Assembly (NCBI GenBank): GCA_030424595.1
Contig: JAUHWG010000011.1
Span: 129,130 to 193,129 of the forward strand
Source: Polyangia bacterium
GTDB taxonomy: Bacteria > Myxococcota_A > Polyangia > Nannocystales > Nannocystaceae
Reading direction: 5' to 3'
DNA length: 64,000 nucleotides
Part shown: one piece after another, positions 15,161 to 58,277 of the stretch
Layout: the number at the start of each line of letters is the position of its first letter
Position numbering within the stretch: position 1 is the stretch's first letter
Made by a program: the position numbers and the translations under genes
The notes under the pieces: model-generated
Told to the model about the DNA's origin: nothing
Database searches by the model: none
Seen by the model: only the letters and a program-made list of their open reading frames with translations

Positions 15161-15279
15161 TGCCGCCAAGGGGTAGCAGATTCGAGCCCCCTTCGGGGGC
15201 CTGTCGCGGCGCGTTCGTCGGATGGCGCCAATGGCGCCTCGCCTCCTCCTGCGGTTCTGGCCGGCTATACGGTGATACC

Positions 15280-16333
15280 CTGGCCGACCGTGTCGCGGCC
15301 CCGCGTCTCTCTGCTTGTTGGCAACCCGACGGCCCGAACAGGGAAGGCCGCCCGTGCCATCAAGCACGCGATGGAGGCGCTCGACCGGCACCACCTCGAC
15401 CCCGAGCTCTTCGCGACCAAGCCCGACGGGGCGACGGTCCCAGCCCTGGCAGAGCGCCTCGAGGCTGGGGACATCGCCAAGGTCATCTATCTCGGCGGCG
15501 ACGGGACCTTCGCCGACACGGCGAAGGGGATCATCCTCGCCCGCGAGCGCTACGGGATCGACGTGCCGATGGGCATGCTGCCGATGGGCACCGCCAACGA
15601 TCAGGGGCGCTCCTTCGGCGTGAGGTCCGGCGTCAAGGCGATCGAGCGCAACGTCGAGATCATCGCCGAGGGGATCGAGCAGTGGCTCGACGTCGGCAGG
15701 GTCAGCGCCTACGACAGCCACGGCGAGGTCGTGCTCCAGGACCTCTGGTTCGACAGCTGGGGCGTCGGGCTCTCGGCGCAGATCCTCGCTCGCCGCAACC
15801 GCGACCGCGAGCGGGTCGCCAAGGTCCCGGTCTTTCGCCGGGTCTACCGCGACAAGGCGGTCTACGCCCGTGCTGCCTTCGCCAGCTACTTTCGCAGCCT
15901 CCTCGGCCGCTCCCGCTTCGCCGCCGCCGTGACGGTGGACGGCGTCTGCCACGAGTACAAGGGCTGTACGGACATCGTCGTCAAGGGGACGCTCCTCTAC
16001 GGTGGTGACTGGATCTTCGCCCCCGAGAGCAAGCCGGACGACGGCAAGTTCGAGGTCATCATCATGAAGCGGCACGCGGATTGGGTGGCGGCGACGATCA
16101 CCGCCCACAAGCGCAACCCGGTGACGGCCGATGATCTCGCGGTGCTCGGGGTACGCCGGGCGGAGATCCCGAGCGGCAAGGACATCGAGGTCCGGATCTT
16201 CCGCTCGCCGCGGATACGCAAGCTCTACGCGCAGCTCGACGGCGAAGAGCTCTTCTATTGCGATCACTACCGGATCGAGAACCTCTTCCATTACCTTCGG
16301 ATCATCGTCCCTATGGATCCCCACTGGGTGTAG
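15280..16333 (+). CDS. Diacylglycerol/lipid kinase catalytic-domain protein (YegS/DAGK_cat family)
   Basis: VSLLVGNPTARTGKA...VIYLGGDGTFADTAKGI...GMLPMGTANDQGRS are DAGK_cat motifs. Start is probably the GTG at 15280, or possibly 15262. It lies divergent to the S46 gene. Confidence 0.7.
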
Positions 16334-16341
16334 GTCTGCCT

Positions 16342-17355
16342 GTGTTTCACGCGTTTACCCGGTTCTTCCCTCCGGTCGTCCTCATGGTCGGGCTCGGGGT
16401 CCTTGGTTGCACCCAGGACACCTCGGAGCAGCTCAAGGGGGCCATCGAGGAGCAGCTCAAGGAGCGGCTCGCCAAGAAGAAGCGGGCGACGACCGATGAC
16501 GGTGGGTCGCAGCCCGAGCTGCTGGCGAACAAGCTCAGCCTCTACCTCGAGTGTGGGCGGGCGACCCAGGCCCTCGTCCGCCAGAGCTGGCGGAGCTACC
16601 GCGAGCAGGTGACGGAGGAGGGGGAGATCCAGGCTGACGGCGCCAAGGTCCCGCTGGTCCCGGCCTCGGCGGTCGAGAGCTGCGCCAAGGCGGCGAAGAC
16701 CGGACGACACCTGCAGCCGCCGCAGCCCGAGCTCGAGGCCGCGACGGTCGACTACGCCGAGGCGCTCGGCAGCTACGCCGCGCGCTTGGAGGAGGTCGTC
16801 GGGATCCTCGAGGCTGGAGGTTCGGCGAAGAAGTTTGACCCCGCCGCAGCGCTGACGATCCGCGAGCTCGGGCCGAGCCTCGACGCCGCCTACAGCTCGT
16901 GGGAGGACGCCTCGGGGTCGCTGACGCGGGAGATCAACGAGACTCAAGGACGGGTCGACACCTCGGTGCTCGCGCGGATCGAAGAGCGGAGCGGACGAGG
17001 CGCGGAGTACTACACGCGCGCCTTCGTGATCGCCTCGCGCCCGCTCGTCCGCTGCCTGACCTCGGCGCCTGGCGTCGCCTGCGAGTCGGCCTTCTTCGCG
17101 ATCGAGCAGGCCCACGGCGAGCTCCACGGGTACCTCGACCTCCACCCCGAGGAGGCGGCCAAGGTCTTCTGGCTCGATCACTTCGTCGCCAGCGCGGACC
17201 AGTACTACGAGGTCGCGAGGGCGCTGATGGAGAAGGTGCGCGCGAGCGGAGTCGGGGCCGACGAGGTCGACGCGGTCGTCGACGAGTTCAACGATCTTCT
17301 GCGCGAGTCGGGGAACCTGAACTTCGGCCGCGTCGAAGCCCCCGCAGCGCCGTGA
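16342..17355 (+). CDS. Hypothetical lipoprotein
   Basis: Lipobox LGVLGCTQ after a hydrophobic stretch. GTG start at 16342, immediately after the kinase stop. An alternative ATG is at 16384. Confidence 0.5.
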   Translation: MFHAFTRFFPPVVLMVGLGVLGCTQDTSEQLKGAIEEQLKERLAKKKRATTDDGGSQPELLANKLSLYLECGRATQALVRQSWRSYREQVTEEGEIQADGAKVPLVPASAVESCAKAAKTGRHLQPPQPELEAATVDYAEALGSYAARLEEVVGILEAGGSAKKFDPAAALTIRELGPSLDAAYSSWEDASGSLTREINETQGRVDTSVLARIEERSGRGAEYYTRAFVIASRPLVRCLTSAPGVACESAFFAIEQAHGELHGYLDLHPEEAAKVFWLDHFVASADQYYEVARALMEKVRASGVGADEVDAVVDEFNDLLRESGNLNFGRVEAPAAP

Positions 17356-34443: not shown

Positions 34444-34572
34444 TGCTGGAGCCTACCAGGGCGCAGCGAACGGCGTCGAAGCCGGCGCGTTCGCGGCAGG
34501 GATCGGTGAATTGAGTTCTCTCGTGCGCACGGTCACCCCCGCCCCGCCAGCACGCGCTACACTCGATCCAGC

Positions 34573-35286
34573 ATGCACAGATCACGGAAGCTCTTGTCGT
34601 CGGCGTTCGCGGCCCTGGCGGGTCTCATCCTCGGCTGCGCGGTCTATGTGGATCCGGGCGAGGAGGGCTCATGCAGTGATGACATCTGCGGCGAAAATGC
34701 GTCCTGCAAGGGCACTGTATGTGTCTGCGATCCGGGCTACGACGGCTTTCCTGAGATGGAGAAGGGCTGCATGCCGACCCAGCCGCCGCCGTCGACCTCG
34801 GCCTGCGAGCTCGGGTGCGGTGCCAATGCCTACTGCTCTGAGGATCTCTGCTACTGCCAGCCGGGGGCGGTCTCCGTTTGCGAGAACGGGGGCTGCCTGC
34901 CTCTGGATCAGGTCTGTGACGGCACCGCCAACTGCGTCGACGGCCACGACGAAGCGGTCGAGATCTGCTTTCCGACGGTGGTCATGGGCTGGTCTGTCAT
35001 CGATCTCTGCCCGGACGGTCTCGACGTCGAATGGAAGCTCTTCTCGGTCGATCGTGACTGGGCTTGGCCGAGCGGCGACGACGTCTTTTGGAGCGGTGGT
35101 CTCGATGTTGAGGTCTTCGAGTACATCGAGTGCGGCGACGGCGAGCTGATCTGCTACGGCGCCGGGGCAGGGGACCTTAGCTGGGGCGTCGGCCTGGACG
35201 GTCTTGGGGGCTGCGAGGACTGCTGTTGGGAGTGCTCCGGCGACCCGAGCGACACTGCATACGTGCCAGAGTGGTTGTGTAGCTAG
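34573..35286 (+). CDS. Cysteine-rich lipoprotein with EGF-like modules and one LDL-receptor class A-like module
   Basis: Lipobox LILGCAV. CKGTVCVCDPGYDG (EGF-like). CLPLDQVCDGTANCVDGHDEAVEIC (LDLa consensus C..D..C..C.DG.DE). 28 Cys in 237 aa. Confidence 0.6.
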   Translation: MHRSRKLLSSAFAALAGLILGCAVYVDPGEEGSCSDDICGENASCKGTVCVCDPGYDGFPEMEKGCMPTQPPPSTSACELGCGANAYCSEDLCYCQPGAVSVCENGGCLPLDQVCDGTANCVDGHDEAVEICFPTVVMGWSVIDLCPDGLDVEWKLFSVDRDWAWPSGDDVFWSGGLDVEVFEYIECGDGELICYGAGAGDLSWGVGLDGLGGCEDCCWECSGDPSDTAYVPEWLCS

Positions 35287-44760: not shown

Positions 44761-44830
44761 CGGGCGCGAACGGTCGTTGAGAGCGGTCGGCTGGCGGAGC
44801 GTCGAGTGGTACAAGCCGGCTGAGGACGAC

Positions 44831-45931
44831 ATGACGATCGCATTGACACGGAAGGCAAGTGAGGCTCGTTTTCGCGCGGCTCTGATCGGCGGTACCGGCT
44901 ACGGCGGTGCCGAGCTGATCCGACTGCTCATCACCCACCCCGAGGTGGAACTCGCGCGCGTGACCAGCATCGACCGAGTGGGCGAGCCGCTGGAGGCGGT
45001 TCATCGGACCCTCCCCACGACCGGGCTGACCTACGAGAAGATGTCGGCGAGAGATGCGGCGGCCGGTGTTGATGTCGTCTTCCTCGCTCTTCCGCACAAG
45101 GTCAGCGCGACGATGGCGGCCGAGCTTCAGGGGGTCGAGGCTCGGATCATCGACCTCTCTGGGGACTTCCGGCTCCGCGACGCCGAGGCCTACGCCAAGT
45201 TCTACGGCGGTGAGCATCCCCATCCTGAGGAGCTCGGGAGCTTCGTCTACGGACTGCCAGAGCTCAACCGAGCGGCGATCCGGGGGGCTCGAAGGGTCGC
45301 GTCTCCGGGCTGTTTCGCGACGACGATCGCCCTCGGCCTGCTGCCGCTCGCCAAGGGCGGCCTCCTCCGCGGCGCGATCCACACGGTCGCCTGTACGGGC
45401 TCCTCCGGGTCGGGGGCCTACGCGAGCGCGGGAACCCATCACCCCACCCGCGCCGGCAACCTCAAGATCTACAAACCCCTCGTCCATCAGCACACGCCGG
45501 AGATCGAGCAGACCCTCGGGGATGCGTGCGTCCTCGGCGGTCATGAGGCGAGCTTCTCGCTCTCGTTCGTCCCTGTCTCCGCGCCGCTCGTCCGGGGGAT
45601 CCTCGCGAACTCCTTCGTCGAGGTCCCAGCCGAGGTCGACGATGCTCAGATCGATTCCCTCTTCCGTGATTTCTACCGCGACTCGCCTGTCGTCCGACTG
45701 CGCACCGGGGCTGAGAATGCTGAGGTCGTGGCCGTCAAGGGGACGGTTTGGGGCGATGTCTCCTGGACCCTCGGCGAGGTGGACTCGACGAGCGGGCGCC
45801 GCCAGCTCCTGGTCACGACCGCCGTCGACAACCTGGTGAAGGGGGGCGCCGGTCAGGCCGTGCAGTCGATGAACCTGATGCTCGGCCTCGACGAGTCGAC
45901 GGGCGTCACCCTCCCGGGGGTCTGGCCGTGA
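44831..45931 (+). CDS. argC: N-acetyl-gamma-glutamyl-phosphate reductase
   Basis: ALIGGTGYGGAELIRLL NAD-binding motif. Catalytic Cys context SPGCFATTIAL. ATG at 44831. Confidence 0.93.
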   Translation: MTIALTRKASEARFRAALIGGTGYGGAELIRLLITHPEVELARVTSIDRVGEPLEAVHRTLPTTGLTYEKMSARDAAAGVDVVFLALPHKVSATMAAELQGVEARIIDLSGDFRLRDAEAYAKFYGGEHPHPEELGSFVYGLPELNRAAIRGARRVASPGCFATTIALGLLPLAKGGLLRGAIHTVACTGSSGSGAYASAGTHHPTRAGNLKIYKPLVHQHTPEIEQTLGDACVLGGHEASFSLSFVPVSAPLVRGILANSFVEVPAEVDDAQIDSLFRDFYRDSPVVRLRTGAENAEVVAVKGTVWGDVSWTLGEVDSTSGRRQLLVTTAVDNLVKGGAGQAVQSMNLMLGLDESTGVTLPGVWP

Positions 45932-46776
45932 GCCCGCGGGCGGTCCTCAAGATCGGCGGCGATCTGCTCTCAAGGCCGGAGGCGCTCTCGGAGGTGCTCC
46001 GCGACGTCGCCTCGCTGGTCGCTGAGGGGTGGCGCTTCGTCCTCTGTCACGGCGGTGGGCCCCAGGCCAGCGATCTTCAGGCGCGCCTCGGCATGCTGAC
46101 GCGCAAGGTCGGCGGCCGGAGGATCACCGACACGGCCACGCTTCAGGTGATGAAGCAGGTGCTCGCCGGGGAGGTGAACGTCGATCTCGTCGCGACCGCG
46201 CTGGCGGCGGGGATCGACGCGATCGGCCTCTCAGGGGTCAGCGGAGGGCTCGTGAAGGCACGACGGCGGCCTCCGATCGTCGTCAGCGGAGGGGGCGACG
46301 CGCCGATCGACTTCGGCTATGTCGGCGATGTCGTGGGCATCCGCACGGAGCTCATCGAGCATCTTTGGGCGGGCGGTTGGACGCCTGTGCTCAGCACGCT
46401 GGGGGTCGACACTGAGGCTGAGGGGGCCTCTGCGCCTGTCTTTAATATCAACGCGGATACGGTCTCGGCGGCGATCGCTGGCGCTCTGAAGGCCGATCAC
46501 CTCTTCGCGATGACCAACGTGCCTGGGGTTCTCCGCGACAAGGACGACCTGACCACTCGGATCCCGCGACTGACCTCGAGCGAGGCGAAGCGGGCGATCG
46601 CCGACGGGATCATCGTCGGCGGGATGATCCCGAAGATCGAGGAGGCGCTGCGCAACCTGGCGCGAGGTATCGGCGCGATACACATCCTCGGCGTCGGTGC
46701 GGGGGTGCTCGCGGAGGAGGCGGCGACGCCGGGCTCGCGCGGAACGGTGCTCGTCGCGGGTTCGGCGAGCGCGTAG
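45928..46776 (+). CDS. argB: Acetylglutamate kinase
   Basis: AVLKIGGDLL...FVLCHGGGPQ...NINADTVSAAIAGAL amino-acid-kinase motifs. The GTG start overlaps the argC stop (GTGA). Confidence 0.9.
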   Translation: MSPRAVLKIGGDLLSRPEALSEVLRDVASLVAEGWRFVLCHGGGPQASDLQARLGMLTRKVGGRRITDTATLQVMKQVLAGEVNVDLVATALAAGIDAIGLSGVSGGLVKARRRPPIVVSGGGDAPIDFGYVGDVVGIRTELIEHLWAGGWTPVLSTLGVDTEAEGASAPVFNINADTVSAAIAGALKADHLFAMTNVPGVLRDKDDLTTRIPRLTSSEAKRAIADGIIVGGMIPKIEEALRNLARGIGAIHILGVGAGVLAEEAATPGSRGTVLVAGSASA

Positions 46777-46928
46777 CGTGGTGCTCGCGGAGGAGGCGGC
46801 GACGCCGGGCTCGCGCGGAACGGTGCTCGTCGCGGGTTCGGCGAGCGCGTAGCGTGGTGCTCGCGGAGGAGGCGGTGGCGCCGGGCTCGCGCGGAACGGT
46901 GCTCGTCGCGGGTTCGGCGAGCGCGTAG
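46701..46928 (+). repeat. 76-bp unit present in 3 tandem copies; copy 1 is the last 76 nt of argB including TAG, and copies 2-3 are downstream
   Basis: The period is exactly 76 nt (gcgtag ends at 46776, 46852 and 46928). Copies differ at only 2-3 positions. Confidence 0.85.
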
Positions 46929-47110
46929 AGGATGCTCCCAGAGGAGACAGCGATCGCAGATCGCAGCGGGAGTGGTGGTGACCGCTGCATCCGCCTTCAA
47001 TGAGCGCTGGCATACGTTCGATTCCGCAGGGCGAGCTTGGCCCAGGGTCGGGAGCGCGTCCGTCGTCGCGACCTTCGAAGGGGCGCTCGGCGGCGTGTTA
47101 CAACCATTCC

Positions 47111-48349
47111 ATGGGTGGATCGAGCGAGCTACAGGCGGCGCTTTTGGCCGCGGTTGATGCCGTCTTTGCCAGCGAGCAGGTGCCGCAGGTCCAGCGCCTC
47201 GTCGATCAGCCGAGTCATACGTACGCCAAGGACGAGGTCGAGGCGGCCGCGGAGCTCCTCGACGGGGCTGCGGCAGCGCTCGGGCTGACGCTCCGGCGGA
47301 TCCCGGATCCCACGGGGCGTTTCGCCGATCATCGGATCTACAGCACTCCGGCGACGGAGGAGGACGGAGAGGCGCTGGCGCTCGTCGGTCACATCGACAC
47401 GGTCTTCCCGCGATCGCTCGGCTTTCTCAAGTTTGTCCGCGAGCCGGCCGACGGCGATGTGATCCGCGGTCCGGGCGTGCTCGACATGAAGTCAGGGCTG
47501 ACGGTGATCCTCTTCGCCCTGCGAGCGGTCAAGGAGGTCGACCCGGAGCGCTTTGAGCGGCTCAAGGTGCGCCTCGTCTGCGTCTCTGACGAGGAGGTGG
47601 GCTCGCCGAGCTCGGCTCGCGTCGTCTACGACGAGCTCGCGGCGAAGACCTCGGCGGCGATGGTCTTCGAGGCGGGTCGGGCCGAGGATCGGATCGTCAC
47701 CCGGCGAAAAGGGGGGGGATCCTTCACCGTGACGGCCTCCGGTCGTGCGGCTCACGCCGGCAACGACCATCGCGCGGGGCGCAACGCGATCCATGCGCTC
47801 GCCCTGCTGATCCCGCGGATCGAGGCGCTGACTGACTACGAGCGCGGGGTCACCGTCAACGTTGGGCTCATCGAGGGGGGGACCGCGAAGAACACGGTGC
47901 CGGACCGGGCGAGCTGCACCATCGACACGCGCTTCGAGACCGCGGCGGACGCCGAGGCTGTCTCGCAGGCCCTGCGCGCGCTCGCGGTGGATCCCTTCGC
48001 CGAGGTCATGTCGATGCCGGCCAAGCTGAAGGATGTGACCTTTGAGGTCAGCGGCGGAGTGACGCGGCCGCCGATGGAGTCGACGCCGGCGACCCAGCGC
48101 CTGCGCGAGCTCTACGAGCGACATGCGGCTGCTGTAGGGCTTCAGGTCGGCGAGGCGCCCCTCCAAGGGGGGGGCTCCGACGCCAACCTCCTGGCGGCTC
48201 AGGGGGTCCCGTGCATCGACGGGCTGGGCCCCGCCGGTCGCTACTACCATCGCGTGGAGGAGTGGAGCAGCCTCGGCAGCCTCCGCCGCCGGACCCAGGC
48301 GCTCGCGCTCTTTCTCGCCCTTGAGGATCCCGGGTCAATTCGTGACTAG
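47111..48349 (+). CDS. M20-family metallopeptidase/deacylase (ArgE/DapE/CPG2-like); possibly acetylornithine deacetylase given the arg context
   Basis: LALVGHIDTVFP metal-binding His/Asp block, DMKSGL and GGSDANLL. ATG at 47111. Confidence 0.78.
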   Translation: MGGSSELQAALLAAVDAVFASEQVPQVQRLVDQPSHTYAKDEVEAAAELLDGAAAALGLTLRRIPDPTGRFADHRIYSTPATEEDGEALALVGHIDTVFPRSLGFLKFVREPADGDVIRGPGVLDMKSGLTVILFALRAVKEVDPERFERLKVRLVCVSDEEVGSPSSARVVYDELAAKTSAAMVFEAGRAEDRIVTRRKGGGSFTVTASGRAAHAGNDHRAGRNAIHALALLIPRIEALTDYERGVTVNVGLIEGGTAKNTVPDRASCTIDTRFETAADAEAVSQALRALAVDPFAEVMSMPAKLKDVTFEVSGGVTRPPMESTPATQRLRELYERHAAAVGLQVGEAPLQGGGSDANLLAAQGVPCIDGLGPAGRYYHRVEEWSSLGSLRRRTQALALFLALEDPGSIRD

Positions 48350-48657: not shown

Positions 48658-49950
48658 ATGAGTGACGCCGACACCCTCGGGGTGCTGACCGCAGTTCTCT
48701 GCCTTATAGGCAGCATGTTCTTCTCAGGGTCGGAGACCGCAATCACCTCCCTGGACGACCGCCGGACCCGGCGAACCGTCGAAGAGGGGGGATTTCGTGG
48801 GCGAGTCCTCAAGTCCTGGGTGGAGCACCCGGTCAAGGTCCTGTCGACGATCCTGATCGGGAACAACATCACCAACACCTTGATGGGCGCGGTGGTCACG
48901 GCGATCGCGATCCGCCACCTCGGCGACGGCCCGAACGCTGACTACGCGGTCGCCTTCGCGGTCACGGTGACGACCGCCCTGCTCCTGATCTTCGGCGAGA
49001 TCACGCCCAAGGCGATCGGGCGGGTCTTCGCCGACAAGGTCTCGGTCCCGGCGCTCTGGCTCATCAACCTCCTGTCGCGGGTGCTCTGGCCGGTGCTCTG
49101 GGTCGTCACGCGGATGACGAACCTGATGATCAACCGTCTGATCACGAGCTCCGGGACGGGCGTGATCAACCGGGTGACCGCCGACGAGATCGGCTACCTG
49201 GTCGACGTCGGTCACCGCGAGGGGTCGATCCGCGCCGGTCAGGCGGCGCTCCTCCAGGGGATCATCCGCTTCGAGGACAAGATCGTCCGCGACATCATGG
49301 TCCCGAGCGATCGGGTGACCGCGGTCAACCTCGCCTGGCACGTCGACCGGATCCGCGAGATCGCGATGCGCAGCGGTCATAGCCGGATGCCGGTCTTCGA
49401 CGGTGACATCAACAACATCGTCGGCATCCTCCACATCAAGCAGCTCGTCGGCGAGCCCGACTCGGGGACGGTCGAGCGGATCACCCGCTCGCCGGTCTTC
49501 ATCTCCGAGTCGCTGCGCCTCCACGATCTTCTCCAGCGCTTCCGCGAGCAGCGCGTCCACCTGGCGATCGTCGTCGATGACTCGGGGGACACGGCGGGGG
49601 TCGTCACCCTGGAGGACGTGCTCGAGCAGATCGTCGGCCAGATCTTCGACGAGAGCGACAGAGCGCCGCCCCTGTCGGGCCAGGAGCAGGCGGGGCTCGC
49701 CCACTTCGACGGTCAGGACACCCTGACGACCGTCGAAGAGCGGCTCGGGTTCGAGATCGAGGAGGAGATCGAGGGCGTCGTCAGCATCGGCGACCTGCTC
49801 ACCCACCTCGCCGGACAGATCCCGATCGCGAGCTCGGTCTTCGTCTGGGAGGGGCTCCGCTTCAAGGTGCTCGCGGCGGATGTACGCCACGTCATCCGGG
49901 TCAGCGTCGAGCAGGTCGAGGTCGAGGTCGACGACGACGACGACGATTGA
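48658..49950 (+). CDS. CNNM/CorC/TlyC-family transporter (DUF21 TM domain + CBS pair + CorC_HlyC); ends in a poly-Asp tail encoded by (GAC)n
   Basis: N-terminal 4-TM DUF21. Tandem CBS. C-terminal transporter-associated domain. Terminal VEVEVDDDDDD. Confidence 0.85.
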   Translation: MSDADTLGVLTAVLCLIGSMFFSGSETAITSLDDRRTRRTVEEGGFRGRVLKSWVEHPVKVLSTILIGNNITNTLMGAVVTAIAIRHLGDGPNADYAVAFAVTVTTALLLIFGEITPKAIGRVFADKVSVPALWLINLLSRVLWPVLWVVTRMTNLMINRLITSSGTGVINRVTADEIGYLVDVGHREGSIRAGQAALLQGIIRFEDKIVRDIMVPSDRVTAVNLAWHVDRIREIAMRSGHSRMPVFDGDINNIVGILHIKQLVGEPDSGTVERITRSPVFISESLRLHDLLQRFREQRVHLAIVVDDSGDTAGVVTLEDVLEQIVGQIFDESDRAPPLSGQEQAGLAHFDGQDTLTTVEERLGFEIEEEIEGVVSIGDLLTHLAGQIPIASSVFVWEGLRFKVLAADVRHVIRVSVEQVEVEVDDDDDD

Positions 49951-49958
49951 GCGTCGCC

Positions 49959-52061
49959 TCAGCGACCGGCGCTGTACTCCCCGAGGTAGCGCGCGAGCGC
50001 CCACGCGGGGAAGGTCTGGCGGTAGAGCCGGTAGTCGAGCACGGCGGTGTTGAAGAACACGCCGCTCGCGCGCTCTTCGGGCCAGCTCCCGTCCGCGTCC
50101 TGCTTCCTGCAGAGGTAGGCGATGCCGCGGGCGATCGCGTCATGGACGGCGCTGTCCTCGGGCTGCGCGCAGAGCATCAGCGTGAGCACAGCCCAAGCTG
50201 TCTGGACGACCAGGCTCGGCTCCTCCGGCGGGAGCTGGATGTCGGCCCCCTCGACGACGCCGCGGTAGCTCTCGGCCCAGCCGCCGTCCGGTCGCTGCGC
50301 GCGGCACAGCCAGCGGCCAGCCCGGGCGAGGGCAGGGTGGTGTCCGTCGAGGCCGCACGCGTGCAGGGCAGAGACCGCGAAGAAGGTCCCGTAGGTGTAG
50401 TTCACGCCCCAAAAACCGAGCCAAGCGCCGTTGACGTCCTGCGCCTTGAGCAGGAAGTCGCGGCCGCGCCCGATCGAACGATCGAGCTCCCGCTCAAGCT
50501 CGCGCGGGAGGGCGCCGCGGAGGGCATCCCGAGCGCAGACCAGGCCGCGGACGCAGGACGCCGTGCACTCCGCGTAGGAGTACTCGAGCATGCAGTTGCC
50601 GTACATCTCGGCGGGGTTGAAGTGGCGGATGACCATCGAGCCGCGGCGAGCCTCGTAGGAGCCGAAGCCTCCGTCGTCGTTCTGCCGCTGGAGGATGAAG
50701 CGGATCGCCGCGATCTGGCGGGTCCGGTCGAAGCTAGAGCTGTCCGTAAGACCAGCTCCTTGGGCGCGGAGCAGCGCCTCTAGGGCCTCCGCGGTGCAGT
50801 CGCTGACCGGCCACGGGTGGTCCTCGGTCGCGAAGCCCCAGCCCCCCGAGGCGGGCGCGCGGTGGTGCCGGGCGCCGTCGGTGATGTCGGCGAGGAGCTG
50901 GGCCTTGGGGAGCCAAGCGCAGGCGTCGGCGACGAGCTCCGCGGCGGTCGTGCTCGGCGGGCCCTCGCAGGCGGCCTGGACGACGAACGAGGTGTCCCAG
51001 ATGTCCGAGCGCGCGCCGACGATCCGCATGCCCTCGTCGTCGTCCTCCCAGACCCAGTACTCGAGGCCCTGGAGCACCGCGGGGAGCTCGGGGTGATCGG
51101 CGTCGCGCGAGGCGAGGGCGAGGGTGAAGAGGAGGCCGTTGACCGGCGAGAGGCAGACGTAGCCGGTCGAGCGGATCTCGAAGAGGATGTGCTCAAAGGC
51201 GTGGTCTAAGGCCCGCTTGCGGAGGAGCTTGGGCGAGAGTCGATCGATCACCCGGAGCCCGGCGAAGGCCGCCCGAAGCGCGGCGTTCGGCGCCTCGAAG
51301 AGGTCGGTGATCGCGATCGAGTGGCGGTAGTCGTCGAAGGGGACGTCGGCGTAGCCCTCCGGGTAGAGCTCGTCGCGGACAGCCGCGAGGAGGGGATCGT
51401 CGTCGGCCGTCACCCGCGCGCCGTAGACGTACGAGAGCCCGAGGTAGATCAGGCGCATATGACAGTAGAGGCGCCGCGGGTGGAAGGGGGAGGCCTCCGG
51501 GAGGAGCCAGATCTCCGGGACGATCGGCTGGACGCTCGCCCAGGGGTAGAGGCCCAGGAGCGCGAGCCAGACCCGACCCCAGGTCGGCAGGACCACGGGT
51601 CCGCCGTGGTTGTAGATCCAGCGCAGCGCGCCGGCGACCAGGGGATCCTCCGCGGGGGATCCGAGGAGGCGCAGGGCGATGTAGGCGAGGGTGGTGTGGA
51701 AGAGGTAGGACTCGCTGTCGGGGTGCATCCCCCAGCCGCCGTCCTCGCGGACCTGGAGCTCGAAGCTCTGGCGGATCCGTCGCCTGCGCGCCTCGGCGAT
51801 CGGCTTGCCGAGGATGTGCATCGTCATCACGTACTGGGAGACCAGCATCGTGTTCCAGATGACCTCACCGGCGAGGGCTCCGTTATCCTGCTGAACCGAG
51901 CGTAGGTGCTTGAGGGAGCGCTCGTAGCGGGTCGCGGCGCTGCGGAGCAGGTCCGCTTCGGGGCGGGCGTCGACGTTGACGCCGACCCCAGAGTGGGCTG
52001 GGTTCGTCATGCGGTGGTCTTCCTGAGGGCGCGCGTCGGGGGCGAGGCGCGGCCCGATCAA
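49959..52061 (-). CDS. Oxidosqualene cyclase (lanosterol/cycloartenol-synthase type triterpene cyclase)
   Basis: Catalytic motif WPVSDCTAEAL (the OSC-type DCTAE, not the SHC-type DxDDTA). RRLYCHMRLIYLGLSYVYG corresponds to the eukaryotic OSC MWCHCRQVYLPMSYCY block. Multiple QW-type repeats. Confidence 0.85.
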   Translation of the reverse strand: MIGPRLAPDARPQEDHRMTNPAHSGVGVNVDARPEADLLRSAATRYERSLKHLRSVQQDNGALAGEVIWNTMLVSQYVMTMHILGKPIAEARRRRIRQSFELQVREDGGWGMHPDSESYLFHTTLAYIALRLLGSPAEDPLVAGALRWIYNHGGPVVLPTWGRVWLALLGLYPWASVQPIVPEIWLLPEASPFHPRRLYCHMRLIYLGLSYVYGARVTADDDPLLAAVRDELYPEGYADVPFDDYRHSIAITDLFEAPNAALRAAFAGLRVIDRLSPKLLRKRALDHAFEHILFEIRSTGYVCLSPVNGLLFTLALASRDADHPELPAVLQGLEYWVWEDDDEGMRIVGARSDIWDTSFVVQAACEGPPSTTAAELVADACAWLPKAQLLADITDGARHHRAPASGGWGFATEDHPWPVSDCTAEALEALLRAQGAGLTDSSSFDRTRQIAAIRFILQRQNDDGGFGSYEARRGSMVIRHFNPAEMYGNCMLEYSYAECTASCVRGLVCARDALRGALPRELERELDRSIGRGRDFLLKAQDVNGAWLGFWGVNYTYGTFFAVSALHACGLDGHHPALARAGRWLCRAQRPDGGWAESYRGVVEGADIQLPPEEPSLVVQTAWAVLTLMLCAQPEDSAVHDAIARGIAYLCRKQDADGSWPEERASGVFFNTAVLDYRLYRQTFPAWALARYLGEYSAGR

Positions 52062-52795
52062 GGGGCCTTCTTGAAGATCAAGAAGTGTTGGTGGGGTAAG
52101 AATTTCTCCTCGCGCTCGAGGGCGAAGCCGGCGGCCTCGGCCTCGGCCTCGACGGCGTCGACGGAGCTGCGAAACTTGGGCTCGGGCGCGCCTGAGTCGG
52201 CGGGCGGGCTCGCGTCCGGGCGGAAGCCGATGATCACCAGGAGTCCGCCGGGCTTGAGCGCCGAGTTGAGCCGCTCTAGGTACTGGATCCGATCGCGGAT
52301 GTACGGGTAGGTGTTCGACATGAAGACCATGTCGATCTCCCCGGCCGGCAGCGCAGGATCGTCGTAGAAGGCGAGGTGAGGCTCGATGTTGGGCGTCCCC
52401 CAGGACTCCCGGTTGCGCTCGATGTGCTCGCGGAAGGTGTCGTCGACGTCGACCGCGTAGACCTTGCCGGCGGGGACCTCATGGGCGAGGCGACGCGAGA
52501 AGTAGCCCGAGCCCGCGCCGATGTCCGCGATCACCCCGTCCTTCGTCTCGATCGCGAGGCTGCGGACCACCCGATCGGGCATCGCCCAGGCGTCGCGCTC
52601 GTCCCGCTCAAACTCGGCGATCATCGCCTCTGGATCCGCGTAATGCTGGGGAAGACCGTCCTTTGGGGGACAGCCTGCGCCGAGGGCGAGGACCAGCAGG
52701 GACACACACGCGGCCGTCGTGTGGAGGAGCGCCGAGCCTCGTGATCGAACCATAGTCACAGGGTATGCGCGCGCTTGGTGCCTGTGAAGTCCCAT
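52058..52795 (-). CDS. Class I SAM-dependent methyltransferase, translationally coupled upstream of the oxidosqualene cyclase (4-nt overlap)
   Basis: Motif I VIADIGAGSGYF. Acidic post-I DVDD. The N-terminus from the first ATG looks like a lipoprotein signal (LLVLALGAGCP). A cytoplasmic protein starting at a later ATG is equally possible. Confidence 0.68.
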   Translation of the reverse strand: MGLHRHQARAYPVTMVRSRGSALLHTTAACVSLLVLALGAGCPPKDGLPQHYADPEAMIAEFERDERDAWAMPDRVVRSLAIETKDGVIADIGAGSGYFSRRLAHEVPAGKVYAVDVDDTFREHIERNRESWGTPNIEPHLAFYDDPALPAGEIDMVFMSNTYPYIRDRIQYLERLNSALKPGGLLVIIGFRPDASPPADSGAPEPKFRSSVDAVEAEAEAAGFALEREEKFLPHQHFLIFKKAP

Positions 52796-53664
52796 CGGCG
52801 GCCCTTGTCAGGTATGCTCCCGCCGCCGTGACCTCCACCACTCCCAGACCCAGCCGAGCCGCCCGGCGTCGCGCTGTCGGTGACCGGCTCCTCGCCGACG
52901 TCGGCGCGCTGTGGAGCGCTCTCCCCGTCGAGTGGCCGCGGCAGCCGCGTCCCTCCGAGGAGAGGTTGGCGGCGGGCGAGGAGGAGCTGCCGGGGTGGGG
53001 CTGGCGCGTGCGCCATACCTTCGCGGCGCTCCTCTTGCGACCGAAGCAGAGCTTCTCCCACGTCCAAGAGCCGGTCTCGCACGCGGCGGTGCTCGGCTTC
53101 TTGGCGACCGTTCGCTTGCCGCTGTGGATCGTCATCGTCGCCCTCGTCGCGGTGCAGGCTGCGATCGGCGGCGGCGGGACGACGACGCTGCGGCCGATCG
53201 ATGAGCTCCTCGATCCGCTCCTGGCCCAGGTGCTCTCGACCTGGCTACTGCTGATGGTCCCGGTCGGTCTGCCGCTCCTCTACTTCTTCTCGGGGATCCT
53301 CACGCACGTCGCCCTCGCCCTGACCGGGGGTGCTCCGCGTTCCATCGCCGCGACGATGCGGGCGACCGGCTATGCCCTTGGGGCGCCGCTGGCGGTGATG
53401 TCGATCGCCGAGGTGCCCCTCTACCTCGGCCTCCTCGGAAGCGTGCCCTACCTGGTCCTCCTCGGGCTGATGGCGCTCCTGTTCTTCCACCAGCTCGCGC
53501 ACGCGCTCGCCGGGACCCACCGGATTCCCTTCATCCGCGGGGTCTTGGTCGGCCTCGTCCCGCTGGCGCTCTTCATCGGCGCGGCCGCGGGGAGGGCGAT
53601 CTTCCTCCTGCCCGAGCTTCCCGGCTGGACGCCGCCGATGGCCAGCCCCTACCTCCTGCCATAG
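52765..53664 (+). CDS. Yip1-domain-like polytopic membrane protein
   Basis: Five hydrophobic helices with the general Yip1 arrangement. The start is uncertain. The ORF-track start overlaps the divergent methyltransferase gene, and GTG 52828 or later is possible. Confidence 0.45.
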   Translation: MRALGACEVPSAALVRYAPAAVTSTTPRPSRAARRRAVGDRLLADVGALWSALPVEWPRQPRPSEERLAAGEEELPGWGWRVRHTFAALLLRPKQSFSHVQEPVSHAAVLGFLATVRLPLWIVIVALVAVQAAIGGGGTTTLRPIDELLDPLLAQVLSTWLLLMVPVGLPLLYFFSGILTHVALALTGGAPRSIAATMRATGYALGAPLAVMSIAEVPLYLGLLGSVPYLVLLGLMALLFFHQLAHALAGTHRIPFIRGVLVGLVPLALFIGAAAGRAIFLLPELPGWTPPMASPYLLP

Positions 53665-54135: not shown

Positions 54136-54864
54136 CTAGCCCTTGGCCGCTTCCTCGGCGCCCTCCGCAGCGCCCTCCGCGGGAGCCCCCTCGCCGTCGA
54201 CCCCGAGGACCGACTGGATCGCCGTGTTCAGCCCCGAGAGGTCGCTCGGCGCGACCGCCGAGAAGCGGACCCCGTTGCGCCCGTCCGCGAACATCAGGGT
54301 CCGGCTCTGGGTGATGTTGTAGTACTCGTCGAAGGCCTTGTTGCCGCCGTCCTCCTCCAGGGCCGGGATGACGACGGGGATCGTGATGTCGAGCTCCTCG
54401 CGCATCGCCTTGATCTTGGCGATCAGCTCCTCGCGGGCCTCGGTCGGGGTGACGCCCTTGCCGTCGCTGATCGCGGCGACGACTCCGAAGGCCTTGACCT
54501 TGTCCTCGCCGTACTTCTTGACGACCGCGTCGATGTTCTGCAGGTCATTGCGGAAGTCCGCGTCGTCGACGTCGCCGACCGCCATGATCTTGGGGCTGTT
54601 GCCGTAGCGGCAGACCTGGCAGTACTCCTCGCCGCTGTCGCAGTTGGTGATCTGGAAGGCGCGGAGCTTGCCGCCGACCCCCAGGCCGGAGTCTGCGAGG
54701 ACGCGGCTGTCGACCGGTTTGGCGGCCTCCTCAGCCTTGACGGGGGCGCTCTTGTCGGCCGGCGCGGGCGTAGCAGCCTCGGCCGCTGCGTCATCGGCGC
54801 CGGGCTGGGGCGCTCCGCAGGCGACGAGGAGGGTGGCCACGAGCGTCAGGGATGTCTTCTTCAT
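54136..54864 (-). CDS. Hypothetical lipoprotein with a Cys-x-x-Cys pair
   Basis: ATG at 54864 with GGAGAG 8 nt upstream. Lipobox LLVACGA. CDSGEEYCQVC motif. The ORF-track 5-prime extension to 55092 has no support. Confidence 0.55.
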   Translation of the reverse strand: MKKTSLTLVATLLVACGAPQPGADDAAAEAATPAPADKSAPVKAEEAAKPVDSRVLADSGLGVGGKLRAFQITNCDSGEEYCQVCRYGNSPKIMAVGDVDDADFRNDLQNIDAVVKKYGEDKVKAFGVVAAISDGKGVTPTEAREELIAKIKAMREELDITIPVVIPALEEDGGNKAFDEYYNITQSRTLMFADGRNGVRFSAVAPSDLSGLNTAIQSVLGVDGEGAPAEGAAEGAEEAAKG

Positions 54865-55326
54865 GCTTCTCTCCAGGGGACCAGCGGCAAGCATGGACCC
54901 GGACGGCTCGAGATTCCAGCCCGCACAGGCCGGTGACGGGAGCGGTCCGCGGTCGGTGGCGCGGCGATCCATGGAGACGATCGAGACCAGGACCTGAGGT
55001 CGACGAGGAGCTGCGAGATGCCCGATCGGGCGGTGCTGCGTGGTCGGGCGCCGCGATCCCAGCGATGGCCGGCGCCAGCTTCGGTCACGCACGGCGAGAT
55101 CGCCGATCGTTCATTGATCGACGTCTCGCGGTCATCCGTCCGGCGGTGGGCGCTCCCCGGCAGCCCCTGCGTTGGCGCGGTGATCGAGCCATCGTCGGTG
55201 ACGCCTCGGTACGCCCGTCTTCGCCGAGGAGGGGTCGTGGCGGTCCGTCGGCGTCGGCGCGCGGTGGGGGAAAGGAGGGCGTCGGACGCCCGTGGGGCCG
55301 GCGCCGCTGGGTTATAGTCAGCGCCG

Positions 55327-56952
55327 ATGTCGAGTTCTCGGCGCTCTTTCTTGGTTACGACGGGGCTCGCCTCCGCCGGCGCCCTCCTCCCGCGCTCGCG
55401 GGCCTGGGCAGCACCGGCGTTTCGCGAGCCGGCCGCAGATTCGGCGCCGTCGCCTGCGTCCCAGACCGAGGCGACCCTCGCGGTCTCCCGACTCCTCGCC
55501 GACGAGGCCCTCGCGAAGCGGGCGGTGGAGGTCGCCGAGAAGGCGGGGGCGACCTACGCCGACGCTCGCCTGGTTCTCTGGGCCCGCGAGCGCATCAGCG
55601 TCCGCGACGATCATATCTCCGGCGTCGGCGGCGGGGATGAGTACGGGATCGGCGTGCGCGTGCTCGCCGACGGAGCCTGGGGCTTCGCCGCCACCTCCGA
55701 GCTCAACCGCCGGAGCGTCGAGGCGTTGGCGAAGAAGGCCGTGGCGATGGCTCAGCGCAACGGTCGCCTGAGACGGTCGCCGATCGAGCTCGCGCCGACC
55801 CCGGTGGTGACCGGGACCTGGGTCGCTCCCTTCGAGACCGACCCCTTCAAGGTCCCGCTCCAGGACAAGGCCGACATGCTCCTCGGGGCAGCCGAGGCCG
55901 CGCTCCGGGTGCCGGGCATCTCCCACGTCAGCGCATCTCTGATGATCGTCCGCGAGGAGAAGCTCCTGATCACGAGCGAGGGCTCGCGGACCCATCAGGT
56001 CTTCTTCCGGACGATGCCCGGCCTGACCGCCAGCGCGGTCGACGTCCGCCAGGGCCGCTTCGCCTCGCGCGATCACGAGGTCGCGCCGATGCTCGCCGGC
56101 TGGGAGCACGTGGTCGGCGCGAAGCTGGTCGACGAGGCCCCGCGGATCGCCCAGGAGGCCCTGCAAAAGCTCCACGCAGCGACCGTCGAGCCCGGGCTCA
56201 AGACGGTGATCCTCGCGCCGAGCAACCTCTGGCTGACGATCCACGAGAGCATCGGCCACTCGACCGAGCTCGACCGCGCGCTGGGGATGGAGGCGAACTT
56301 CGCCGGCACTTCGTTCATCAAGCCCGAGACCACCGGCGAGCTGCGGATCGGCGCCGAGCGGGTCAACTTTTTCGCCGACCGGACCCAAGCCGGGGGGCTG
56401 GCGACGACCGCCTGGGACGATGAGGCCGTCGCCGCCCAGCGCTGGCCGATCGTCAAGGACGGGATCCTCGTCGGCTGGCAGACGACGCGCGAGCTCGCGG
56501 GGGCGATCGGCGAGAAGGCGAGCCGGGGCTGCTCCTACGCCGACTCCTACGGATCGATCGCCTTCCAGCGGATGCCCAACATCAGCCTCCAGCCCGGGAC
56601 CGAGGGGTACACGACGGAGGATCTGATCAACGCGACCGACGACGGCGTGCTGATCACCGGACGCGGGAGCTGGTCCATCGACCAGCAGCGCTACAATTTC
56701 CAGTTCGGCGGCCAGACCTTCTGGGAGATCAAGAACGGTCGTCTCCGCCGTCCGCTGCGGGACGTCGCCTACCAGGCGAACACGATCGAGTTTTGGAGCT
56801 CCTGTGACATGATCGGCGGTCCCGGCACCTATCGCCTCGGCGGCTCCTTTAGCGACGGCAAGGGCGAACCTGGGCAGGTCAACGCGGTCAGCCACGGCTG
56901 TCCGCCCGCGCGCTTCAAGGCGAACGTGCTCAACACAGGGGGTGGAAAGTGA
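55327..56952 (+). CDS. tldD: TldD-family metalloprotease with a twin-arginine (Tat) signal peptide
   Basis: SRRSFLVTTGLASAGALL Tat motif. HESIGHSTELD zinc site. C-terminal GxC...C motif region. Confidence 0.88.
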   Translation: MSSSRRSFLVTTGLASAGALLPRSRAWAAPAFREPAADSAPSPASQTEATLAVSRLLADEALAKRAVEVAEKAGATYADARLVLWARERISVRDDHISGVGGGDEYGIGVRVLADGAWGFAATSELNRRSVEALAKKAVAMAQRNGRLRRSPIELAPTPVVTGTWVAPFETDPFKVPLQDKADMLLGAAEAALRVPGISHVSASLMIVREEKLLITSEGSRTHQVFFRTMPGLTASAVDVRQGRFASRDHEVAPMLAGWEHVVGAKLVDEAPRIAQEALQKLHAATVEPGLKTVILAPSNLWLTIHESIGHSTELDRALGMEANFAGTSFIKPETTGELRIGAERVNFFADRTQAGGLATTAWDDEAVAAQRWPIVKDGILVGWQTTRELAGAIGEKASRGCSYADSYGSIAFQRMPNISLQPGTEGYTTEDLINATDDGVLITGRGSWSIDQQRYNFQFGGQTFWEIKNGRLRRPLRDVAYQANTIEFWSSCDMIGGPGTYRLGGSFSDGKGEPGQVNAVSHGCPPARFKANVLNTGGGK

Positions 56953-58277
56953 CGCTCCTCAGCAAGAAGGAGGCGCAGGCGATCACCAAGGCCGCGCTCA
57001 AGGCGAAGACGGTCGACGCGATCGCGGTGTCGATCACGTCGGAGATGAGCGGGTACCTCCGCTTCTCGCAGAACCAGGCGGCGGCGACCGGCGAGACCGA
57101 GCGCCTCGAGGTGTCGGTGACCGCGACCACCGGCGATCGCTCGGCGACCGTGACCGGGGCCTATGTCGACGACGCCGGCCTCAGGGCGCTCGTCGGTCGC
57201 GCCGAGGCGCTCGCCAAGCTCGCGCCGAAGAACCCCGAGAACATGCCGCCCGTCGCCGCGCAGACCTACCTCGCGGTCGACGAGGAGGACGCGAAGACCG
57301 CGAAGATGGGCGCCGAGGAGCGCTTTGACCTGACGCGGAAGCTGCTCCGCGTCGCCAACAAGGCGCGCCTCGACGCGGCCGGGATGGTCTCGCATCGGCA
57401 TCGCGCCGTGGCGATCGGCAACAGCGCTGGGCTCTTCGCCTACCACCCGTCGACCAGCGTGTCGCTGAGCATGACCTGCCGAACCCGCGACGGGACCGGC
57501 TCGGGCTGGGCGGCGGCGATGGAGCACCAGCTCGCTGCGATCGATGCGGCCGCCGTCGCCGAGCGGGCGGCCGAGAAGGCGGATCTCTCCAAGGATCCGG
57601 AGCCTGTCGAGCCGGGCGCCTACACGGTGATCCTCGAGCCTCAGGCGGTCGCCGAGCTCCTCCTCTTTCTCGGCTGGTCGCTCGATCGACGCAGCGCCGA
57701 CGAGGGGCGCAGCGCCTTCGCCAAGCCCGGCGGCGGGACTCAGATCGGCGAGGCGCTCTTCCACCCGTCGATCACGCTCCGCTCCGACCCGTCGGCGCCG
57801 GACCACCCATCCTCCCCCTTCGCCGGCGACGGTCAGGCGCTGCCGAAGACGACCTGGATCGACAAAGGTGTGCTCAAGACCCTGTCGACCTCGCGCTACT
57901 GGGCCGCCAAGAGCGGCGTCGCAGCGGTGCCGCAGCCGCGCTCGTTCATCCTGGACGGCACCTCGAAGACCGACGAGGAGCTGATCCAGGGGGTCGACGA
58001 AGGGATCCTGGTCACCCGCTTTTGGTACAACCGGATGCTCCAGCCGCAGTCGATCCTCGCGACCGGGCTGACCCGCGACGGCACGTTCCAGATCAAGGGG
58101 GGTAAGATCTCCAGGTCGATCAAGAACCTCCGCTACAACGAGAGCCCGCTGACGATGCTCAAGAGCGTCCTCGCGCTGGGGACCCCGAAGCGGGTCGCGG
58201 TCGACGGTCAGACGGTGGTCGTGCCGACGATGGTCGTCGGCGGCTTCACGTTTTCGAGCCTGAGCGACGCGGTCTGA
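56949..58277 (+). CDS. TldE/PmbA-family protein (TldD partner); no signal peptide
   Basis: PmbA_TldD fold. GTG start overlapping the tldD stop (GTGA). Confidence 0.82.
   Translation: MTLLSKKEAQAITKAALKAKTVDAIAVSITSEMSGYLRFSQNQAAATGETERLEVSVTATTGDRSATVTGAYVDDAGLRALVGRAEALAKLAPKNPENMPPVAAQTYLAVDEEDAKTAKMGAEERFDLTRKLLRVANKARLDAAGMVSHRHRAVAIGNSAGLFAYHPSTSVSLSMTCRTRDGTGSGWAAAMEHQLAAIDAAAVAERAAEKADLSKDPEPVEPGAYTVILEPQAVAELLLFLGWSLDRRSADEGRSAFAKPGGGTQIGEALFHPSITLRSDPSAPDHPSSPFAGDGQALPKTTWIDKGVLKTLSTSRYWAAKSGVAAVPQPRSFILDGTSKTDEELIQGVDEGILVTRFWYNRMLQPQSILATGLTRDGTFQIKGGKISRSIKNLRYNESPLTMLKSVLALGTPKRVAVDGQTVVVPTMVVGGFTFSSLSDAV

Follow-up and report, generated by a model that had tools for sequence, protein, structure and literature searches.

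Organization of the locus

The 64,000-nucleotide stretch analyzed here (in the following termed the window) is part of contig JAUHWG010000011.1 of the Polyangia bacterium assembly GCA_030424595.1, and its host is an uncultured Nannocystis-like myxobacterium. The G+C content ranges from 65 to 71% across the window and is about 69% for the organism. On the minus strand, two open reading frames (ORFs; 49959..52061 and 52058..52795) follow each other, of which the downstream one codes for a protein with the sequence hallmarks of an oxidosqualene cyclase (Osc) and the upstream one for a putative lipoprotein with a class I S-adenosylmethionine (SAM)-dependent methyltransferase fold (in the following denoted MTase). 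Both genes, the cyclase motif VSDCTAE and an MWCHCR-like block had been described in an earlier note made from the sequence alone, and the ORFs, the motif positions and the domain matches are confirmed, at a significance that rules out chance matches.

Read from the start codon discussed below, the cyclase gene spans 49959..52010 of the minus strand and encodes 683 amino acids, a predicted lanosterol synthase according to its Pfam and TIGR03463 matches, the alignment to human lanosterol synthase (PDB code 1W6K) and the conservation of its start. A spacer of 47 nt (52011..52057, minus strand), delimited by the sequence and by a three-way DNA alignment, separates it from the MTase gene (52058..52753, minus strand), which codes for 231 amino acids from M15 and is identified by Pfam, an AlphaFold2 model and its motif I.

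Identity of the cyclase

The cyclase matches the Pfam domains SQHop_cyclase_N (E=5e-59, 200 bits) and SQHop_cyclase_C (E=4e-58, 197 bits). Among the NCBIfam models it scores 707.9 bits with the 2,3-oxidosqualene cyclase model TIGR03463 versus 274 bits with the squalene-hopene cyclase model TIGR01507, and it reaches 486.7 bits with TIGR01787, above the cut-off of 322.7. The TIGR03463 score is lower than the curated cut-off of 851 bits, as are those of the controls Enhygromyxa salina DSM 15201 (680.7), Plesiocystis pacifica SIR-1 (630), Nannocystis radixulma (701.8) and Pseudenhygromyxa (700.2), with the Nannocystaceae Osc clade ranging from 630 to 715 bits. Since the controls from sterol producers are also found below 851 bits, this cut-off excludes the whole clade, cannot tell its members apart and says nothing against membership.

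In a comparison with all sequences of the PDB, human lanosterol synthase 1W6K comes out first (E=2.6e-112), with an alignment over nearly the full length of the protein (cyclase residues 25-677 against human residues 70-721) and a score of 379 bits versus 193 bits for the hopene cyclase of A. acidocaldarius. Conserved in the cyclase are D455, C456, C533, H232, Y503, W387, W581, F696 and Y704 (human numbering), thus the catalytic residues, and in addition V453 and five QW-type repeats. The VSDCTAE motif (50787..50807, minus strand; human V453, D455, C456), located by translation and the 1W6K alignment, is of the DCTAE type with D455, C456 and C533 in place, and not the DxDDTA motif of hopene cyclases. 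The block LYCHMRLIYLGLSYVYG (51420..51470, minus strand) aligns as the equivalent of the human LWCHCR sequence and includes H232. Within this block W230 is replaced by Tyr in 136 of 136 clade members and C233 by Met in 130 of 136, both also in the window, while H232 is invariant. Further differences to the human enzyme are Ala for T381, His for C449 and Phe for W590. Going by the group descriptions in PMC4919349, the window cyclase would fall into Group 1, which contains only bacterial proteins and is placed basal to those of eukaryotes.

A squalene-hopene cyclase identity is ruled out by the motif, the hidden Markov model scores and the PDB scores. With TIGR03463, the 1W6K alignment and the catalytic motif in agreement and both motifs aligned in place, the earlier assignment as an oxidosqualene rather than a squalene-hopene cyclase holds, and the protein is, judged from these comparisons, an oxidosqualene cyclase of a myxobacterial lineage.

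Nannocystaceae-type sequences account for all of the 120 best homologues. The closest one (P0001, from a metagenome-assembled genome) is 89% identical, followed by a protein of a 'Nannocystis exedens' assembly (78%) and by N. radixulma (65%); in species-representative genomes the best matches are found in an uncultured Nannocystis (79%), E. salina (56-58%) and P. pacifica (52%, best segment). The uncultured Nannocystis-like relatives share 78-89% identity with the window cyclase, and the Osc proteins of E. salina DSM 15201 (Ga0055550_114516), P. pacifica SIR-1 and Nannocystis, which fall into the same clade, 57-66% (57-58% for E. salina and P. pacifica). These comparisons place the cyclase within the Nannocystaceae Osc clade, with apparently vertical inheritance; all cultured Nannocystaceae have been described to possess a lanosterol-type Osc that is vertically inherited (PMC12004948). 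It differs from the known Nannocystaceae enzymes in that its source species is missing from the collections searched (best match 89%), and it is a new sequence within a well-described clade. It extends a sterol-producing family, which has attracted interest as a potential origin of sterol synthesis in eukaryotes, by one more uncultured Nannocystis-like lineage. The cycloartenol synthases of Stigmatella and Cystobacter (Myxococcaceae) are myxobacterial oxidosqualene cyclases as well and have H449 in common with the window enzyme, but by published description they carry I453, form cycloartenol, belong to a separate clade and were putatively acquired independently (PMC4919349, PMC12004948).

Predicted product

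At the positions corresponding to human residues 381, 449 and 453 the window cyclase harbors Ala, His and Val in the 1W6K alignment, in agreement with the earlier assignment of His449 and Val453. The eukaryotic lanosterol synthase pattern, T381 combined with C/Q449, is thus absent. A381, H449 and V453 are, together with the catalytic residues, invariant in 136 of 136 clade members, including E. salina DSM 15201, P. pacifica SIR-1 and N. radixulma; the combination may look unusual, yet it is a signature of the clade and not a quirk of the window gene. E. salina and P. pacifica produce lanosterol, not cycloartenol, and convert it to zymosterol (PMC4919349), and E. salina continues to cholesterol (PMC10202945). 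In the bacteria tested, V453 versus I453 tracks lanosterol versus cycloartenol completely, and position 453 alone is predictive (PMC4919349), and the V453 rule has also been used for N. pusilla (PMC10152446). The E. salina cyclase locus retrieved here (L012) corresponds to contig 145, and from the tag format we infer that its cyclase is Ga0055550_114516, the lanosterol synthase of PMC4919349.

Because A381/H449/V453 is invariant in a clade which includes producers of lanosterol, zymosterol and cholesterol, lanosterol is the predicted product, on the basis of orthology and the V453 rule. The earlier claim that the combination of His449 and Val453 makes the product unpredictable is not supported in the light of these two observations. 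If the enzyme works like known lanosterol synthases, as its conserved residues suggest, the epoxide of 2,3-oxidosqualene would be protonated by D404 (human D455), with C405 and C482 (C456 and C533) keeping this residue in position, the aromatic residues equivalent to human W387, W581, F696 and Y704 would stabilize the cation cascade, and the H184/Y452 pair (H232/Y503) would terminate the reaction. V453 would direct the enzyme to lanosterol, which would then be demethylated and reduced by enzymes whose genes are situated at other places in the genome.

The substrate would have to be supplied by a squalene epoxidase. In a Pfam scan of about 50 ORFs across the window no squalene epoxidase, FAD-monooxygenase or fatty-acid-hydroxylase-type domain is found, consistent with the earlier statement that the window lacks a squalene epoxidase. 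In E. salina and P. pacifica, too, no epoxidase was found behind the cyclase gene, the ORFs tested there being AI-2E transporters or unknowns. Sterol genes are scattered in Nannocystaceae genomes (PMC10202945, PMC10152446), and the E. salina epoxidase is located on a contig other than the cyclase contig (PMC4919349). With sterol genes dispersed in this manner, a missing epoxidase is expected and no warning sign; the epoxidase of the host would be encoded elsewhere in its genome.

The tags given for Osc proteins differ between Tables 2 and 4 of PMC4919349, namely PPSIR1_04883 and PPSIR1_02843 for P. pacifica and Ga0008035_02275 and Ga0008035_04852 for N. exedens. According to these tables PPSIR1_02843 adjoins the epoxidase PPSIR1_02838. 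The mismatch reflects either a second cyclase paralogue beside the epoxidase or a table error.

Gene junction and cyclase start

Two candidate start codons of the cyclase have to be considered, a TTG at 52061, which overlaps the MTase stop as TTGA, and an ATG at 52010 with the sequence AGGAAG 9 nt upstream. The 89% identical cyclase P0001 is annotated from the ATG equivalent to 52010 (protein MTNPA...). In the three-way DNA alignment of the window with its 89% and 79% relatives the AGGA Shine-Dalgarno sequence and the ATGACGA are kept, while the junction spacers of these closest relatives contain indels which are not multiples of three and break the frame. Due to these spacer indels the TTG-equivalent start is broken or removed: L111 has a GTG-ATG distance of 53 nt, and in L001 this place is taken by CTG, which is no start codon. 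As the frame is broken by indels and the Shine-Dalgarno sequence with the ATG is nevertheless kept, the cyclase probably starts at ATG 52010, behind the 47-nt spacer, and the TTG at 52061 is rejected. The 4-nt overlap reported earlier is therefore present as a TTGA sequence but probably unused.

In the orthologous loci the situation is often different. Of 20 loci, 11 have a start codon in frame that forms a 4-nt overlap with the MTase stop, as ATGA in seven (strain ST9, E. salina and P. pacifica among them), as GTGA in three and as TTGA in one. E. salina and P. pacifica thus share with the window the MTase gene upstream of the cyclase, but have an ATGA overlap where the window cyclase has its own ATG 47 nt past the MTase stop. 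A scan of 49500-53300 gave neither terminator-like nor sigma-70-like sites, which is uninformative in a myxobacterial genome of 69% G+C. With both genes on the same strand, a spacer of 47 nt, no terminator-like site found and an order kept in 24 other loci, co-transcription of MTase and cyclase is likely, and the earlier description of the cyclase as co-oriented and probably co-transcribed with a class I MTase gene is supported by the short spacer and the conserved order.

Fold and lipoprotein signal of the methyltransferase

The MTase matches the class I Pfam domains Methyltransf_25, Methyltransf_12 and Methyltransf_11. Its motif I, DIGAGSGYF, is invariant in 64 homologues, and YAVDVD with the acidic residue at the end of strand 2 is conserved. 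The AlphaFold2 model (pLDDT 89) depicts a class I fold with alternating strands and helices and matches 1445 PDB methyltransferase entries at E<=0.001. The closest solved structure is that of an Aquifex aeolicus protein (3DH0; Foldseek E=2e-15), with TM-scores of 0.74 and 0.90 normalized to query and target length and an rmsd of 2.0 Å; 3DH0 is also the best sequence-profile match (E=2.3e-18). It shares 23% identity with the window protein, its substrate is uncharacterized, and it aligns only from profile position 42 onwards and is therefore silent on the signal peptide. The other structural matches are generic small-molecule methyltransferases with 12-23% identity. With an uncharacterized protein as best match and generic enzymes behind it, no function was assigned from structure.

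The hydrophobic signal of the MTase ends in a lipobox cysteine (MVRSRGSALLHTTAACVSLLVLALGAGC). From M15 (52753) the protein starts with MVRSRGSALLHTTAACVSLLVLALGAG, directly followed by Cys at position 28, and this signal peptide with its lipobox (52670..52753, minus strand; from the translation and the conservation of Cys28) comprises R3 and R5, a hydrophobic core and the sequence LGAG in front of the cysteine. The upstream ATG at 52795 would lead to a protein of 245 amino acids; the homologue P0121 (92% identical, 231 amino acids) is annotated from M15, and the lipoprotein signal fits best from there. Cys28 is invariant in the 64 homologues. The strict PROSITE-style lipobox pattern is found in 43 of these, and the other 21 are near-matches in which a hydrophobic run is followed by [AGS]C. 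In all orthologous loci retrieved the hydrophobic segment of the MTase ends in [AGS]-Cys, while the rest of the signal varies. A lipoprotein signal had been noted earlier from the first ATG; it is retained here, with its best fit shifted to the second. By its conservation the signal is genuine and under selection, not an artifact of start codon choice, and the MTase would be exported by a Sec-type signal and anchored to lipid.

Relatives with predicted export in other phyla

A profile search of 1.84 billion cluster representatives yielded 629 hits at E<1e-30. Among the best 150, an N-terminal hydrophobic signal is present in 94 of 95 single-domain representatives, about one quarter of which have a lipobox-like motif and about one quarter a His-rich linker after the signal. 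Named members belong to Candidatus Binatia and Terriglobia, and the Nannocystaceae-type subfamily is distinguished by SNTYxY where the broad family has CDTYHHI. Based on these sequences, the MTase seems to be a member of a large, uncharacterized family of exported proteins with a class I MTase fold that is found in many phyla. In the searchable literature no reports of periplasmic or lipobox-bearing SAM methyltransferases were found, and the supply of SAM outside the cytoplasm is a puzzle for this family whether sterols are involved or not. Tat export carrying pre-bound SAM was considered as a general answer and rejected, as Tat-like motifs are too rare (present in 8 of the 64 close homologues and in 7 of 94 representatives of the family). 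Nor could a function be deduced from the neighbors of the broad family: the commonest one, by eye an APC-type amino-acid permease, occurs in only 15 of about 77 loci.

Linkage of methyltransferase and cyclase

The cyclase lies directly downstream of the MTase in 25 of 29 loci with a Nannocystaceae-type MTase (the window included). Conversely, in each of the 19 genome loci that extend far enough to show what precedes the cyclase, the gene directly in front of it is the MTase. The same order is present in Pseudenhygromyxa, the 89% relative and three Nannocystaceae-like metagenomic loci. This arrangement, a cyclase behind an exported MTase-fold lipoprotein in most Nannocystaceae including E. salina and P. 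pacifica, often with predicted translational coupling, is contained in published genomes and is a modest lead; an MTase beside osc is not mentioned in PMC4919349, PMC10202945, PMC12004948, PMC10152446 or PMC8237579.

Several loci deviate from this arrangement. The MTase of N. pusilla is situated beside a divergent Yip1-like gene, followed by TatD, L3 and FtsJ genes and no cyclase, and the cyclase of N. radixulma is located elsewhere without an MTase upstream. The locus L030 of a related organism (Logan SRR33677539, 832-10494) contains, in this order, Yip1-like, MTase, CNNM, M20, amino-acid kinase and asd genes. It thus shows the gene order of the window minus the cyclase, with a gap of 15 nt between MTase and CNNM and identities to the window proteins of 64% (M20), 55% (CNNM) and 45% (MTase). 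At this site the cyclase is thus present in one lineage and absent from the other. L029 resembles L030 in having no cyclase, and none of the 77 broad-family metagenomic loci has a cyclase nearby. In a neighbor-joining tree of the MTase (no bootstraps) L030 is basal to all cyclase-linked MTases, and N. pusilla is nested among them.

In the window the Yip1-like gene (52828..53664, plus strand) is divergent from the MTase gene with a gap of 74 nt and codes for a putative multi-pass membrane protein of 278 amino acids from GTG 52828. It was identified by tblastn synteny. PF04893 is found in several homologues and not in the window protein itself; the Yip1 assignment is taken from precomputed Pfam hits on these homologues and the start from homologues of 278 amino acids. 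By tblastn the Yip1-like gene adjoins the MTase in all contexts, including the cyclase-free loci L024, L029 and L030 as well as L111, and is a more constant partner of the MTase than the cyclase. Its homologues amount to 90 hits in all, and those with a named source come from Nannocystis, Nannocystaceae or unclassified Myxococcales assemblies.

Concerning the order of events at this site, we infer that the Yip1-like/MTase module would predate the cyclase, which would have been placed behind the MTase near the base of the Nannocystaceae, making use of the MTase expression signals. Both genes would have been separated again in cultured Nannocystis. In many relatives the NTGA overlap would couple the two genes translationally, and the window cyclase would rely on an ATG and a Shine-Dalgarno sequence of its own.

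Possible roles of the methyltransferase

In our view the locus most likely (probability about 0.72) combines an ordinary Nannocystaceae lanosterol-type Osc with an exported MTase from an older module, the pairing reflecting shared expression and not sterol methylation. The MTase itself would most probably act on, or bind, a component of the cell envelope. Several points weigh against this interpretation. The loci L030 and L029 may have lost a cyclase rather than never having had one, and the adjacency of MTase and cyclase across about 45% MTase identity, together with the recurrent 4-nt overlap, could reflect a functional link. To our knowledge there is no source of SAM outside the cytoplasm, and a SAM-needing exported enzyme is itself unexplained. 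Mutagenesis has connected the His/Val combination in plant cycloartenol synthase with mixed products. In the papers examined no heterologous assay of a Nannocystaceae Osc was found, the product thus resting on orthology and V453, and Table 3 of PMC4919349, as extracted, has marks in the cycloartenol column as well as the lanosterol column for the two marine strains E. salina and P. pacifica, whereas the text says lanosterol.

A different product owing to H449/V453, be it cycloartenol, parkeol, a mixture or a triterpenol outside the sterols, could be argued from the marked cycloartenol column, from H449 as the cycloartenol-synthase state and from residue 381, an Ala and neither Thr nor Tyr. We regard this as quite improbable, given the invariance of all three residues across a clade of lanosterol, zymosterol and cholesterol producers, the lanosterol rather than cycloartenol in the text of PMC4919349 with its complete V453 correlation, and the designation of Nannocystaceae Osc as lanosterol-type in PMC12004948. 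Even less credible is a cytoplasmic MTase whose apparent signal is an artifact of a too-early start codon: an internal Met (residue 58 of the 245-residue ORF) does precede the catalytic domain, but the hydrophobic N-terminal segment and its Cys are kept in the 64 homologues and in all orthologous loci, and the wider family has such a signal in 94 of 95 representatives.

A functional two-enzyme operon in which the MTase methylates a sterol or a precursor (squalene, oxidosqualene or lanosterol), as proposed earlier, would agree with the gene order kept in 25 of 29 loci, the 4-nt overlap in 11 of 20 and the invariant SAM-binding motifs. It would, on the other hand, place the two enzymes in different compartments, since the lipoprotein signal puts the MTase outside the cytoplasm and the cyclase, lacking a signal, should remain at the cytoplasmic face. 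The sterol C-24 methyltransferases SMT/ERG6, bacterial ones included, share the class I SAM-dependent fold with the window MTase, which differs from them in lacking Sterol_MT_C, in its length (231 amino acids in total and about 200 in the mature form, thus too short) and in being exported. No significant relation to a sterol methyltransferase is found, the only match of that name in the PDB being a depositor's name on an archaeal protein (E=8e-6). None of the sterols described from E. salina, P. pacifica and Nannocystis (lanosterol, zymosterol, cholesterol, lathosterol and nannosterols) has an added methyl (PMC4919349, PMC10202945, PMC10152446). Because the MTase is exported, its widespread family occurs in cyclase-free contexts (0 of 77 broad-family loci, the same syntenic slot in L030, N. 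pusilla, and conversely N. radixulma) and the reported sterols lack added methyls, a sterol-methylating role is unlikely, and the case for a co-transcribed sterol-methylation step is weak.

In an alternative to catalysis on a biosynthetic intermediate, the lipoprotein might bind, carry or modify sterols of the envelope, analogous to BstB and BstC of Methylococcus capsulatus. There, periplasmic and outer-membrane-associated sterol-binding proteins of the sterol operon have been recruited from ordinary transporter families, and 75% of the sterol resides in the outer membrane (PMC10942540). The likeness consists in exported envelope proteins being encoded with sterol genes (BstC is predicted to belong to a periplasmic-lipoprotein superfamily; PMC10942540), here a lipoprotein gene immediately upstream of the cyclase and, by the overlaps in many relatives, translationally coupled. 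The folds are unrelated, of periplasmic-binding-protein and TPR type in BstB/BstC, and sterol binding was demonstrated for these proteins. Moreover, conserved SAM-binding motifs favor an enzyme over a carrier, and the loci which separate the two genes, the wide distribution of the family and the 77 cyclase-free loci count against this role as they do against sterol methylation; we deem it as doubtful as the latter. A similarly long shot is the idea that the lipoprotein is an unnoticed envelope-side part of Nannocystaceae sterol biology, translationally coupled to the cyclase in strains such as E. salina and P. pacifica and modifying or handling sterols after these have left the cytoplasmic membrane. 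If true, the large family would stand for methylation with SAM, or for a SAM fold put to another use, outside the cytoplasm, of which no described example was found in the literature searched.

Other features of the window

An Rfam scan of the whole window gave no match, and the hypothetical proteins around cyclase and MTase have no Pfam or NCBIfam matches. The neighboring genes are of the housekeeping type, comprising a semialdehyde dehydrogenase family gene, an amino-acid kinase, an M20 peptidase, a CNNM/CorC transporter, a TldD/PmbA pair, a uracil-DNA glycosylase and others. The first three are adjacent on the plus strand (44777-48349) and, by domain reading ArgC/ArgB/ArgE-like, look like an arginine-type biosynthesis cluster; the CNNM/CorC transporter after them is convergent with the cyclase.

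At 12866-16354 (minus strand) an S46 (DPP7/11-like) peptidase domain begins at residue 462 of a stop-to-stop frame of 1162 codons, which has either a long N-terminal extension or its true start far downstream. LDL-receptor class A domains are unusual in bacteria; a weak match to one (E=3e-5, just above the gathering score) is found at 34510-35286 (plus strand). On the other side of the Yip1-like gene, a conserved hypothetical protein at 54136-55092 (minus strand) harbors the lipobox LVATLLVAC and a CxxC motif (CQVC), without a Pfam or NCBIfam match. In most related loci it keeps its synteny with the TldD/PmbA pair. This pair of tandem metallopeptidases (55327-58277, plus strand), whose genes overlap by 4 nt (56949-56952), is syntenic across the Nannocystaceae loci.

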